Position numbers and translations under genes: made by a program. This document shows, one piece after another, positions 7,141 to 23,295 of a stretch of DNA of 64,000 nucleotides (its first letter is position 1; every line of letters begins with the position of its first letter). The DNA lies in the IMG/VR virus record IMGVR_UViG_3300024346_000009. The stretch is one strand, 5' to 3'. The notes under the pieces are model-generated. The model was not told where the DNA came from. It worked only from the letters and a program-made list of their open reading frames with translations, and made no database searches. The DNA is from a virus.

Positions 7141-8195
7141 GTAGAGTTATTATGAGTGAGCCTCACGGCATTACACCTGATTTAAGTAATTATAAATCTG
7201 CGCTATCACGTGCTTTCAATTTCTATAATCAAGACAACGGAAAAAAAGAAGCTCGTCTGTTTTTACGGGCTTATATAAAGAGTGTCGGGCAAGATTTAAA
7301 AGCGGTAGATAGCGTACCTGATAACAAAATTAGCACAACCTACGGCTGGGTAGCACGGATACTTTTAAACGGTAATGTACTTCAAGAACAGCACGTTCAA
7401 GGACTAAAGAATTATATCAGCACCTTAACGATTGATAAAGTAGTTAAAGTTGAAGTCGAAAAAGTTACTCGGTTAACTATCCAAGATTACATGCAAGAAA
7501 AGATTGCTGAAACCCTTGGAGAGTTAGAAGGAGCTATTGATGATTTCATTACTTCAGGTACTGAGTTTGATATGCTTTCGTATCTTAAAGCTTCCTCTAC
7601 CCCGAAGCCTTACTGTAGTCATATTGATACATGGACCCGTAAGAAAGCCGCAGAGTTTATCGAGGCATATCAGTCTGATGATAAGGAACTAAAAGAGGCG
7701 TATGGGTATCTAGGAAAGAGGAAACTTGCCCAGTTAATTAAAATGCTTAATAGTTTTGTTACCGATGTAGAGCGGTATACAGAGTTTAAAAAAGCTAACC
7801 GTAAACCTAGAGCTACAAAGGTAAAGCCTGCAGGTGTTCAGGTTGCAAAGATTAAATACAAGATAGAAGATACTGATCTTGGTCTTAAATCAGTAAGACC
7901 TTCCGATATAGTTGGTGCTTCCCAGGTATGGGTATACAATTGTAAGTATAAAAGGTTAGCGGTTTATAGAACTGATTCCTCTTTAGGAATCCAGGTCAAG
8001 GGCACTACATTACAGAACTATGATCCGGAGACGAGTGAACAAAAGTCTATACGTAGACCTGAGGCTTTTCTTAAGATTGTATTAAATGCAAGTAAGGTAC
8101 AACTGCGTAAGATATTGACCGAGCTAACTACGACGGGGTACGATCTTACAGGTCGTATAAATGAAGAATGTATTATATTGAGAGTACTTAAATAA
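7137..8195 (+). CDS. Conserved hypothetical phage protein
   Basis: 352-aa ORF coupled to both neighbours; C-terminal TGRINEECIILRV. Confidence 0.7.
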   Translation: MSRVIMSEPHGITPDLSNYKSALSRAFNFYNQDNGKKEARLFLRAYIKSVGQDLKAVDSVPDNKISTTYGWVARILLNGNVLQEQHVQGLKNYISTLTIDKVVKVEVEKVTRLTIQDYMQEKIAETLGELEGAIDDFITSGTEFDMLSYLKASSTPKPYCSHIDTWTRKKAAEFIEAYQSDDKELKEAYGYLGKRKLAQLIKMLNSFVTDVERYTEFKKANRKPRATKVKPAGVQVAKIKYKIEDTDLGLKSVRPSDIVGASQVWVYNCKYKRLAVYRTDSSLGIQVKGTTLQNYDPETSEQKSIRRPEAFLKIVLNASKVQLRKILTELTTTGYDLTGRINEECIILRVLK

Positions 8196-9079
8196 TGGTT
8201 GTAATAGATTATAGTCAAACGATTATATCTAATTTAATGGCGGAGATAGGTACAAGAAGTGATGTTGAAATTGATGTAAATCTTCTTCGACACATGGTTA
8301 TTAATACTATCCGAAGTCATAAGGTTAGATTCGGTGGGGAGTTTGGCGAGGTGGTAATTGCCTGTGACAGCAGAAAGTACTGGCGTAAGCAACAATTTCC
8401 TTATTACAAAGCCAATCGTAAAAAAGCGAGAGAGAGTTCTGGTCTTAATTGGCCGCAAATATTTGACTCGATTAATCTTATTAAAGAGGAGCTGAAGGCT
8501 GTCTTTCCGTACCGGGTTATTGAAGTTGAGGGTACAGAGGCAGACGATGTTATTGCTGCATTAGTGTACTGGTCTTTAGATAATGATCTTAAGGAAGGTA
8601 CGTTGTTTAGTGAACCAGCCCCGTTTTTAATTATCTCCGGTGATCACGACTTTAATCAGCTCCAAGTGCATAAACACGTCAAGCAATATTCGCCTATTAA
8701 AAAGAAATTTGTTAAGTCTGAACTCCCACCCGAGCAATGTGTTATAGAGCACATTATCAGAGGGGATAAAGGTGACGGGGTACCGAATGTACTATCTGCT
8801 GATGATAGTATTGTATCTGGCGAGAGACAGAAGCCTATCTCTACAAAGAAGCTAGAGGAATGGATGGCTGATCCTACCACCATGCCAACGGATGATGAGT
8901 TTGTTCGAAATTATCACCGTAACAAAATGCTGGTTGATCTGTCCATGATTCCTAAATCCATACAAGAACAGATTATAAATACCTTTATAAATTACCCTAT
9001 AAAAGACCGTAGTCAATTACTAGATTATTTTATAAAAAATAGAATGAAACAAATGACTGAACATACACAGGAGTTCTAA
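8195..9079 (+). CDS. rnh: RNase H / 5'-3' exonuclease (T4 rnh)
   Basis: YWRK..FPYYKANR, EADDVIA, SGDHDFNQL and GDKGDGVPN (FEN/5' nuclease motifs). Confidence 0.93.
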   Translation: MVVIDYSQTIISNLMAEIGTRSDVEIDVNLLRHMVINTIRSHKVRFGGEFGEVVIACDSRKYWRKQQFPYYKANRKKARESSGLNWPQIFDSINLIKEELKAVFPYRVIEVEGTEADDVIAALVYWSLDNDLKEGTLFSEPAPFLIISGDHDFNQLQVHKHVKQYSPIKKKFVKSELPPEQCVIEHIIRGDKGDGVPNVLSADDSIVSGERQKPISTKKLEEWMADPTTMPTDDEFVRNYHRNKMLVDLSMIPKSIQEQIINTFINYPIKDRSQLLDYFIKNRMKQMTEHTQEF

Positions 9080-9546
9080 TGAATTTACTTATATCTGAAA
9101 TTTTAAATAATTTTGAAGCTGCTAAGACAAAGCAGGAGAAGCTAGCCATTCTCAAGCAAAATGATACCCCGGTACTCCGTACTATTATGAGGTTAAATTT
9201 TGATCCTAAACTAAAGATGGATCTACCCGAAGGGGAACCACCTTATAAAAAGGATCTAGATAAGCCTATTGGGTACCATGAGACTAATCTTATTCAAGAA
9301 TACCGAAGATTTTACATCTGGCTTACCCCTCAAACAAACTTACCTAAGTTTAAGAAAGAAACGCTATTTGTCAGTATGCTTGAAGGCCTTCACTGGTCGG
9401 AGGCAGAGGTGTTAGTTTTAGCAAAAGACGGTAAACTAAGTACTAAGTTTAAGAGTCTTAAGGAAGACATGGTTAGGGAAGTATACTTAAATTGTTTATC
9501 TGAAAAAGAGAAAGTTACTAAGGTAACGACAGACCCTTTGGTATAA
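9079..9546 (+). CDS. Conserved T4-like hypothetical protein (DUF6433-like); probable -1 frameshift extension to 9674
   Basis: LPEGEPPYK...ETLFVSMLEGLH pattern; ends C CCT TTG GTA TAA. Late promoter TATAAATA at 8974-8981. Confidence 0.75.
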   Translation: MNLLISEILNNFEAAKTKQEKLAILKQNDTPVLRTIMRLNFDPKLKMDLPEGEPPYKKDLDKPIGYHETNLIQEYRRFYIWLTPQTNLPKFKKETLFVSMLEGLHWSEAEVLVLAKDGKLSTKFKSLKEDMVREVYLNCLSEKEKVTKVTTDPLV

Positions 9547-9670
9547 AGTCTCTCTGGCATAGGTTCTTTCGACGAGCAGATCCCGTAACCCCCTGGTCTG
9601 TAAGTACTGATATTCCGTCACCAGAGAGATCGTTCGACGTAAGGCTGACAACGTTACGTAACCGTAAACC

Positions 9671-9699
9671 TTGATTTACGACTGAAAGTATACTATAAT
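9671..9699 (+). promoter_or_regulatory. Sigma70-type promoter
   Basis: TTGATT-17 nt-TATAAT. The ATG at 9705 lies about at the expected +1, so the mRNA may be leaderless. Confidence 0.75.
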
Positions 9700-9704
9700 A
9701 TATT

Positions 9705-10058
9705 ATGATCTATTCTAATACTAAGTCAAAAGTTAAACCTAAGACTATGCCTAAAGCCGAGCGCGAGGCGTATGCTAAGTGGTGTGCTCAATACGATATT
9801 AAACCTGAGGGTAAGGTTAAGAAAAAAGTAGTAGTTTATAATACTGAATTACCTGGTACTGTCTATAAGCCGTTTATTCGTGAGACGGTTCGGTATCCTA
9901 GTTTAGATACCGGTCATAAGGGTGCTGTTAATACTGGTAAGACTACTATGTGGTATACGGGCGATAAGATGCTTGGTGTAGCTACGATGCATAAGTCTAA
10001 CTTAGTTCCTATTTTTAGTGATGATAACGCGGTCGAAGTATCGCAAATGAGGAGATAA
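9705..10058 (+). CDS. Conserved hypothetical phage protein
   Basis: Basic 117-aa ORF with a YTG..MLGVATMHKSNLVP motif. Confidence 0.7.
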   Translation: MIYSNTKSKVKPKTMPKAEREAYAKWCAQYDIKPEGKVKKKVVVYNTELPGTVYKPFIRETVRYPSLDTGHKGAVNTGKTTMWYTGDKMLGVATMHKSNLVPIFSDDNAVEVSQMRR

Positions 10059-10059
10059 A

Positions 10060-10440
10060 ATGAGTACATTAATATATAATGCAATCCGTACCCCTGATGG
10101 TACTGTACTAGAGTCTAGACATAGACATGATTATGTTGTATATGAAGATAAAAATGGTAGAGAGTATATGGTGGATGGCGGCCATGATTATGTTAGACGC
10201 AACGTGCACGACGATGCTCCTTATGAAGAGATAAGTGTCTATACAACTGATGGTCACGATAAAGTACGTGAAGTACTTAAATGGGGTACATATGGTATCA
10301 ACGGTGATCAGCCCTTAACCTACATTGCACTTAAAGACATGAATACCGGGCATATTCAGGCCTGCCTAGATACCCAATCTCGTATGCATCCGACATACAG
10401 ACAAGCTTTTGAAGAAGAATTGAAACTAAGGAGTATATAA
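10060..10440 (+). CDS. Hypothetical protein
   Basis: ESRHRHDY...MVDGGHDYVRR motif; GGAG SD. Confidence 0.7.
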   Translation: MSTLIYNAIRTPDGTVLESRHRHDYVVYEDKNGREYMVDGGHDYVRRNVHDDAPYEEISVYTTDGHDKVREVLKWGTYGINGDQPLTYIALKDMNTGHIQACLDTQSRMHPTYRQAFEEELKLRSI

Positions 10441-19080: not shown

Positions 19081-19119
19081 ATTTTGTGTTTAACTTTTAT
19101 TTAAATTTTGGAGTTTTTT

Positions 19120-19332
19120 ATGAAGACAATTATCGCAATTATTACTACCCTGTTCGCCTTGAGTTCTTTTGCTGCTGAGCCAGCTAAGAAAGAAGAAGCA
19201 AAGCCTGCTGCTAAAGCTGCCGCCGCTCCTGCTGCGCCAGCCGCTAAAGCTGCTCCTGCCGCGGCTCCTGCTGCACCAGCAGCACCAGCTGCCGCTAAGA
19301 AAGACGAAAAGAAGCCTGAAGCAAAAAAGTAA
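19120..19332 (+). CDS. Small secreted Ala/Pro/Lys-rich protein; probable -1 frameshift extension to 19436
   Basis: GGAG SD; signal peptide MKTIIAIITTLFALSSFA; ends GCA AAA AAG TAA. Confidence 0.8.
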   Translation: MKTIIAIITTLFALSSFAAEPAKKEEAKPAAKAAAAPAAPAAKAAPAAAPAAPAAPAAAKKDEKKPEAKK

Positions 19333-22406: not shown

Positions 22407-22606
22407 TATAGATTCCTTGCATTTTGTTTAAGCATTTTAAGCTTTTCATTTTCCTTTTTAATATAGTCAATTAGTAATGAAACGTAAATCTCCCTCTCCC
22501 ATGGCATCATATTTTCTAACTCTGTAAGGCTGTACTTATGATGCTGCATCAGCGAGAAATTTAAAGTAAAGTAGTTAGCTAATGAATCATGTGAGAGGGC
22601 TATACG
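22406..22606 (-). CDS. gp51-like baseplate hub assembly segment (not in the ORF track); -1 frame of gp26
   Basis: RIALSHDSLANYFTLNFSLMQHHKYSLTELENMMPWEREIYVSLLIDYIKKENEKLKMLKQNARNL*. The internal ATG at 22549 has no SD. The stop overlaps the holin ATG. Confidence 0.85.
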   Translation of the reverse strand, partial: RIALSHDSLANYFTLNFSLMQHHKYSLTELENMMPWEREIYVSLLIDYIKKENEKLKMLKQNARNL

Positions 22607-23295
22607 AAAAAATTCTGTAATCCCTCAAGCCGCGATACATTGTGCTTATTACATTTCGGGCAATCACATTCAATTATCTGTACGATTTTTGGTGATGTAA
22701 CAAAAAACTTTTCCAATTTATCAAACTGTTCTTTAGTTAAAGAGTAAATAAATTCTTCTAATTCTGCCCTAGTTTGATCAGCCGCCTCCCAATACTCGTC
22801 TTTATTGTAAATAGCTTTTACACAATTAATAATTAAATCGATTACCGATTGGTTATCTTTTGATGCAAATACTCCCACAACTTCGTCAATATTGGGGTAC
22901 TTCATTTCAATACCAATATCATCTGTAATATTAATCTTATTACTGTGATCAGGTTTAACTTCAATCTTGAGATCCTCAATACTAAAACTGGTATCAATTT
23001 TAGTACCGCATTCACAATTAATAACTACATCTACCGATTCACCTATAGACTTTGCCCGTAGGTTCATAAAGATATATTCAATATCGAAGTGAGGTAAATC
23101 TTTTACCTTGAGTTCCTTAAAGGTACACACATCGACAAGCTCCCGTATAATTCGTGAAACTTCTTCATTTTCTGCCTCCGACATTGTTAACAGCACCTTA
23201 TGCTCTTTAACAAGAAAGGGTCTAAATTTAATTTTATTACCTGTAGAAGGTAAATTCAATTCATACGTTGGTGTTTCTAATTTTGGTAAAGCCAT
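22600..23295 (-). CDS. Baseplate hub assembly chaperone (gp26-like)
   Basis: MALPKLETPTYEL, FRPFLVKEHK, FDIEYIFMNLRAKSIGE, Cys pairs, ends LQNFFV. Confidence 0.88.
   Translation of the reverse strand: MALPKLETPTYELNLPSTGNKIKFRPFLVKEHKVLLTMSEAENEEVSRIIRELVDVCTFKELKVKDLPHFDIEYIFMNLRAKSIGESVDVVINCECGTKIDTSFSIEDLKIEVKPDHSNKINITDDIGIEMKYPNIDEVVGVFASKDNQSVIDLIINCVKAIYNKDEYWEAADQTRAELEEFIYSLTKEQFDKLEKFFVTSPKIVQIIECDCPKCNKHNVSRLEGLQNFFV

Follow-up and report, generated by a model that had tools for sequence, protein, structure and literature searches.

Does the small gene that follows rnh in a T4-like phage end at its stop codon, or do some ribosomes read beyond it? The question is raised by a locus in the window, the whole stretch of 64,000 nucleotides of IMG/VR record IMGVR_UViG_3300024346_000009 that was analysed here. 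This stretch comes from a T4-like myovirus with only a distant kinship to cultured cyanophages and to Caulobacter phage Cr30. Its rnh gene (8195-9079), coding for a protein with 5'-3' exonuclease and T4 RNase H C-terminal domains, is joined by an ATGA overlap to a gene of 155 codons (9079-9546, + strand), which lies directly after it and among small genes of unknown function. Genes are packed end to end around this position, and the 158-nt gap up to the next start at 9705 is conspicuous. The gene ends GAC CCT TTG GTA TAA, with a slippery heptamer C CCT TTG (9534-9540, + strand). A first-pass annotation had pointed to this heptamer as in-frame and of the X XXY YYZ type, which the sequence and its phase confirm, and had read it as a hidden -1 cassette giving two isoforms. 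Comparisons of the heptamer, the -1 frame and the downstream stem among relatives favour that reading: a programmed -1 ribosomal frameshift at the 3' end of this gene, a member of the DUF6433 family, very probably yields isoforms of 155 and 198 aa. The same annotation knew of no recoding in the family, and literature searches for recoding in DUF6433 proteins found no description, an absence that is not proof of novelty.

Taken alone, the pattern in the window would not be significant. Three of its 71 ORFs of at least 100 aa carry such a heptamer in their last five codons, and where genes are so closely packed, long open -1 frames often follow a stop. It is the comparison with relatives, not the window sequence by itself, that lifts the signal above chance. 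The first relatives were three IMG/VR contigs with proteins 66-68% identical, the same heptamer two codons ahead of the stop, and an open -1 frame that translates into a peptide alignable with that of the window. A profile-guided scan brought 80 more loci and a metagenome scan only one extra; about 60 related viral contigs, divided into clades A and B, carry the cassette. Clade A comprises the window-like loci (19 distinct sequences). In every one of them C CCT TT[AG] stands exactly 10 nt before the stop, so that the 0-frame stop is one codon past the heptamer (19/19). Proline is always encoded by CCT and leucine always by TTR; the residue before proline varies, yet its codon ends in C without exception. 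Because CCT, TTR and the preceding C are invariant across the 19 loci, the constraint acts on nucleotides. At the protein level, 111 of the 120 closest homologues in the database finish with P-L-x-stop, although their Lys/Glu-rich ends vary in other respects; none of the 120 is about 198 aa long. At one clade-A locus (L016) a -1 frame stop directly precedes CCC and the -1 frame opens exactly there; the frame change must therefore fall within 10 nt.

The extension in the -1 frame of the window consists of 44 codons (GGT to CCT, 9540-9671) and a TGA, and occupies 9540-9674 on the + strand, as the first-pass annotation had described; the predicted trans-frame product has 154 + 44 = 198 aa. Upstream, the -1 frame is closed up to 9522, from where it is open to the TGA at 9672-9674. 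This closure and the 0-frame stop at 9544 together place the change of frame at the heptamer. The TGA shares bases with the -35 hexamer TTGATT (9671-9676) of a sigma-70-like promoter (9671-9699, + strand; TTGATT-17-TATAAT, 10 of 12 consensus matches) that would serve the next gene (ATG at 9705), and a TTGAC-type -35 box overlaps the TGA in most clade-A loci. Two earlier remarks hold here: the -1 frame does stop at the -35 box of the next promoter, and the unusual gap in a packed genome is accounted for by an extension that occupies the stretch before this promoter.

That the -1 frame evolves as a protein does shows in its pattern of change. Pooled Nei-Gojobori comparisons were limited to codons past the 0-frame stop and covered 19 clade-A and 27 clade-B sequences, all of which keep the frame open. 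In clade A, where the open extension measures 38-47 codons in 19/19 loci, pN/pS is 0.48 in the -1 frame, against 1.07 and 1.00 in the other two, which hold 3.4-4.7 stops per sequence. The -1 frame of clade B gives 0.55; over both clades, the other two frames range from 0.85 to 1.24, with 1.8-5 stops per sequence. Third codon positions of the -1 frame change most. In the closest relative (L094, protein 95% identical), the tail differs chiefly by conservative replacements in its middle. Collectively, this indicates that the -1 frame evolves as a protein under purifying selection, and the conservation of the -1 ORF that the annotation had proposed as a check is borne out. These figures also weigh against the idea that nothing is recoded and that the frame is open by accident in a structured RNA element (3' UTR or intergenic) or in the remnant of a decayed gene. 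Such an idea draws on a local G+C of up to 0.52, compared with about 0.38 in the genome, and on the existence of conserved stems (a long-range stem and a terminal hairpin, described below). The rise in G+C is, however, missing in relatives such as L001, and neither an Rfam search with permissive thresholds nor ARAGORN gave a hit in 9000-10200 or in the window. With substitutions gathered at third positions and with other frames full of stops, the absence of recoding is highly improbable.

The tail itself starts with a basic aromatic stretch (IKSLW...), which may form an amphipathic helix, and contains further on a conserved W...P-x-P-E-R-F/Y motif. It matched no Pfam or PHROG family. A search for in-frame fusions of domain and tail found none, which is weak evidence, and tblastn of tail peptides against 50,697 phage records gave no true match; the tail is thus not seen in any cultured phage among those records. 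Heptamer and tail co-occur, and one relative (L038) is without either. The tail would be a partner-binding module.

Could the 44 codons be a separate small gene, translated from a non-canonical start or by termination-reinitiation and unfused to the DUF6433 protein? Such an arrangement is suggested by three relatives: the homologous peptide of L053 starts GTG-ATG at the upstream stop, phiN3 has a small separate ORF after the gene, in another frame, and L015 has an ATG at the fourth -1 codon counted from the heptamer. The -1 frame of the window, however, holds no ATG, GTG or TTG, and none is conserved across clade A. The peptide is conserved from the heptamer onward, already ahead of the 0-frame stop, and in clade B from 7 codons before that stop. 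An unfused gene would also leave unexplained the strict phase and the nucleotide conservation of two different slippery heptamers. A separate gene is thus unlikely, and a fused product of ribosomal frameshifting is preferred.

The second heptamer is that of clade B, which comprises about 40 distinct loci with 45-56% identity. The slip site in these loci reads A AAA AAG or A AAA AAA, in phase throughout and usually 28 nt before the stop; together with the 19/19 loci of clade A, this extends the conservation of an in-phase heptamer, another check named by the annotation, to both clades. A 6-nt spacer follows, then a hairpin of 7-11 bp; its TTTGAA/TTCAAA core is invariant, and its extensions differ between subclades, with a G-C to U-A exchange among the differences. 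In clade B the -1 tail has 44-47 codons and YRAFDK at its end. Tails of both clades share an aromatic and basic-rich N-terminal stretch followed by W...P-x-(D/E)-P...(Y/F)-(D/N)-x-(R/K), and from these shared features are probably homologous. GGGAG or AGGAG precedes the heptamer by 10-11 nt in several clade-B loci, a spacing between Shine-Dalgarno-like word and heptamer that is that of dnaX. In four of them (L047:1650-1690, L036, L054 and L061), GGGAG/AGGAG, 10 nt and A AAA AAG come with an AACC.AAAGC spacer, and the whole stretch is one that we take to resemble closely the frameshift region of E. coli dnaX. This likeness is either convergence or coding coincidence.

Some loci combine features of both clades. 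An A-run occurs with a clade-A-type tail in L023, and three loci (L026:1656-1826, L030:1656-1826 and L034:1632-1784) carry A AAA AAG 28 nt and C CCT TTA 10 nt before the stop, both heptamers sharing one phase and leading into the same -1 tail. These three look like intermediates in the replacement of one slip site by the other. In L092, A AAA AAG is kept beside a degenerate CCCTTC. A FastTree phylogeny of the domain nests clade A, with C CCT TTR, inside the A-run forms, and places the frameshifting group as sister to a cyanophage/Melnitz group without the cassette. The cassette was indeed absent when sought in P-RSM4, Melnitz, S-CRM01 and phiN3, as well as in cyanophage-type relatives. This history bears on whether the frame could change in the RNA, by transcriptional slippage, and not on the ribosome. 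Some polymerases stutter at a low level on A runs of 6-7 nt, the length found at clade-B sites. At the window site, C3T3, the homopolymer run is too short; the A-runs are always in X XXY YYZ phase with a hairpin 6 nt on, which matters to ribosomes and not to polymerases; and some lineages swapped the A-run for C CCT TTR and retained the tail. Transcriptional slippage is accordingly given very little credence. Overall, ribosomal frameshifting explains more of the evidence than does a separate ORF, transcriptional slippage or a non-coding RNA.

Two lineages outside the frameshifting pattern deserve mention. In L053 (1680-1830) the tail homologue opens with a GTG-ATG that overlaps the stop before it, and the heptamer is missing; in this lineage the tail can probably be made as a separate protein of ~47 aa. 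In Sinorhizobium phage phiN3, the small ORF after the DUF6433 gene (gp198; L008:1691-1879) lies in the +1 frame and contains RYAFD, which recalls the YRAFDK end of clade-B tails.

What might stimulate slippage in the window is a stem that starts after a 7-nt spacer (9541-9547, + strand), in which the 0-frame TAA (9544-9546) is contained. Its 5' arm, GTCTCTCTGG (9548-9557, + strand), pairs with the 3' arm, CCAGAGAGAT (9621-9630, + strand), as the annotation had claimed. The stem has 10 bp with one G-U, begins 7 nt after the heptamer and is found in the minimum free energy (MFE) fold. The element that it encloses (9546-9632) folds better than shuffled sequences (z -2.85, 2/200). Across clade A the long-range stem has 10-15 bp, with 87% of cells paired compared with 31-58% for slid partners; in L014 it reaches 15 bp in the MFE fold, with an element z of -4.97, and in L001 and L009 the helix can apparently be kept in a register shifted by one base (alignment by eye). 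The covariation that had been suggested as a check is present, with CG to UA exchanges, and is modest: four pairs changed on both sides, in arms that also encode the conserved KSLW and PER motifs, so that conservation of the stem is confounded with coding. RNAalifold on the clade-A alignment predicted only a small local hairpin and not the long-range stem, which was tested explicitly because RNAalifold alone did not call it. From its place and pairing, this stem would stimulate shifting; the 63 nt that it encloses are unusual for a stimulator.

The annotation had also drawn, inside this element, a hairpin whose CGTAAC loop complements GTTACG downstream and could form a pseudoknot. Both complementarities exist in the window and neither is conserved: 40% of cells are paired across relatives, the same as in shuffled and slid controls, and both lie in the most variable stretch and are changed even in L094, despite its 95% identical protein. 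The inner hairpin and pseudoknot were therefore rejected. GTTACG belongs instead to a small terminal hairpin, TTACG-TAAC-CGTAA (9654-9667, + strand; arms 9654-9658 and 9663-9667), just before the -1 stop, which is 77% paired across 19 relatives compared with 30-52% in slid controls. Upstream of the heptamer, a Shine-Dalgarno-like AAGG (9520-9523, + strand) lies 10 nt away. In clade A, 15 of the 19 loci have AAGG(A)/GAGG with its first base exactly 14 nt ahead of the heptamer, in a region that codes for Lys/Glu; in L094 the word is GAGG. The AAGG of the window is a possible upstream stimulator.

These elements suggest the following course of events. The majority of ribosomes would read Pro-Leu-Val and then stop, giving the 155-aa protein. 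Others would stall while CCU is occupied by tRNA-Pro and UUG by tRNA-Leu; the obstacle would be the stem starting 7 nt further on, perhaps aided by pairing between 16S rRNA and the AAGG that lies 10 nt upstream. Both tRNAs would move back by one base, onto CCC and UUU, and reading would restart at GGU, adding 44 residues and producing the 198-aa isoform with the junction ...TDP-L-GIK. Slippage would in this way set a fixed proportion between the bare and the tailed form of a DNA-binding protein of ligase type, which may act beside RNase H when nicks or the lagging strand are processed. We infer slippage itself, its efficiency and the roles of both isoforms from comparative sequence analysis. 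As to efficiency, C_CC.U_UU.A and C_CC.U_UU.G belong to a list of 18 heptamers, under-represented in E. coli genes, at which shifting exceeds 0.1% without any stimulator (Sharma et al. 2014, PMC4066793). As tetramers, U_UUG and U_UUA are weak A-site shifters in that host, 1.8-3.6 fold over background. Efficiency at the window site may therefore be low or modest, and host-dependent.

Among known systems, the closest in layout is E. coli dnaX, which makes tau and gamma by a -1 shift at A AAA AAG, with an upstream Shine-Dalgarno word and a downstream stem-loop (PMC4344849). The window repeats this three-part layout, with a Shine-Dalgarno-like word ~10 nt ahead of an X XXY YYZ heptamer and a stem 6-7 nt after it, and the predicted outcome is likewise a pair of isoforms, at a fixed ratio, of a protein linked to replication; even the dnaX heptamer A AAA AAG and its spacer recur in clade-B relatives. 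The differences are that the dnaX shift truncates the protein, whereas that of the window would add 44 residues, and that the window has C CCU UUG and a long-range stem (63 nt enclosed) in place of a compact hairpin. The protein families are also unrelated. Shifts of -1 near the end of a gene that add a C-terminal extension are those of T7 gene 10A/10B and lambda G/GT (reviewed in PMC5009743). Like them, the window has its slip in the last codons and is predicted to make a minor longer isoform beside a major short one. Unlike these capsid and tail-chaperone genes, the window gene belongs to a replication module beside rnh. An assignment to tail assembly chaperones of the G/GT type was considered and rejected: the gene follows rnh, its product has a ligase-DBD-like predicted fold, and the setting is not that of tail tube and tape-measure genes.

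The identity of the 0-frame protein (155 aa, 9079-9546, + strand) is given by matches to DUF6433 (Pfam PF20025; 109.2 bits for a cut-off of 38.9, residues 8-121) and to phrog_461. Its AlphaFold (AF2) model, computed from an alignment of 40 sequences, is all-helical with a pLDDT of 72.6, and its top 50 PDB matches are all N-terminal DNA-binding domains (DBDs) of ATP-dependent DNA ligases. The best is the T4 DNA ligase DBD (5wfy, 6dt1; Foldseek E 4e-3, TMq 0.63), on which the whole predicted protein superposes (VIA Z 12.8, rmsd 3.1, 130 of 132 residues aligned, 16-17% identity), a match to be read with a pLDDT of just 72.6 and with a Z near 13 that is borderline for helical folds. Z scores of 12.0 and 10.0 were obtained with the ligases of Prochlorococcus and of a Rhizobium phage. 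A profile of the 40 sequences found no sequence-level match among PDB chains at E up to 10. On the strength of the model, the predicted 0-frame protein resembles the T4-type ligase DNA-binding domain in fold. Unlike T4 ligase, it is stand-alone, without a nucleotidyl-transferase or OB domain, and its DNA binding is putative. Ligase content differs between genomes: no PF01068 or PF01653 ligase core was detected in the complete clade-A genome (L022 record, 163 kb, terminal repeats), and two larger clade-B genomes (L025 and L027 records) encode an ATP-dependent ligase ~2 kb from the DUF6433 gene; the clade-B ligase ORF has 444 aa in the one checked (L090).

It is tempting, if speculative, to propose that the tail is a recruitment module that turns a stand-alone ligase-type DBD into an adaptor bringing a sealing or processing partner to nicks. 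Candidate partners would be the host ligase, the sliding clamp, RNase H or the single-strand-binding protein. The short-to-long ratio of such an adaptor would be set by slippage and retuned by swapping A AAA AAG for C CCU UUR. If true, this would matter most in T4-like phages without a ligase of their own, for example the complete clade-A genome.

Two further genes of the window end in candidate slip sites. A gp26-like baseplate/tail gene (22600-23295, - strand) ends AAT TTT TTC GTA TAG, with a heptamer at 22606-22612. T TTT TTC stands exactly 10 nt before the stop in 77 of 78 relatives (41-82% identity), and their -1 extensions of 59-65 codons are strongly conserved as protein; to judge by this, the same phage seems to have a second -1 frameshift, and a very well conserved one. 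The published view is that frameshifting is avoided in the tail chaperones of T4-like phages (Vladimirov et al. 2022, cited in PMC10274946), and the apparent frameshift of the gp26-like gene bears on that view. A gene for a small Ala/Pro/Lys-rich protein after the gp32-like gene (19108-19332, + strand) ends GCA AAA AAG TAA, with a heptamer at 19323-19329. Its -1 frame is open for 35 codons, up to a hairpin resembling an intrinsic terminator; heptamer and extension are both kept in only one of six relatives, and this is a weak candidate for frameshifting.

For this large group of mostly uncultured T4-like phages, the predicted frameshift has several meanings. Recognised frameshifts of tailed phages concentrate in tail-chaperone and capsid genes, and a replication module would be a rare context for one. 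The gap after the DUF6433 gene is mis-read as 'empty', and gene callers overlook a conserved tail of ~45 residues. What the window contributes is the C CCU UUR variant and, with it, the transitional forms: the family displays turnover of its slip site, with two heptamers and intermediates carrying both, which amounts to a natural experiment. DUF6433 itself gains testable hypotheses, namely a ligase-like DNA-binding fold and two isoforms.
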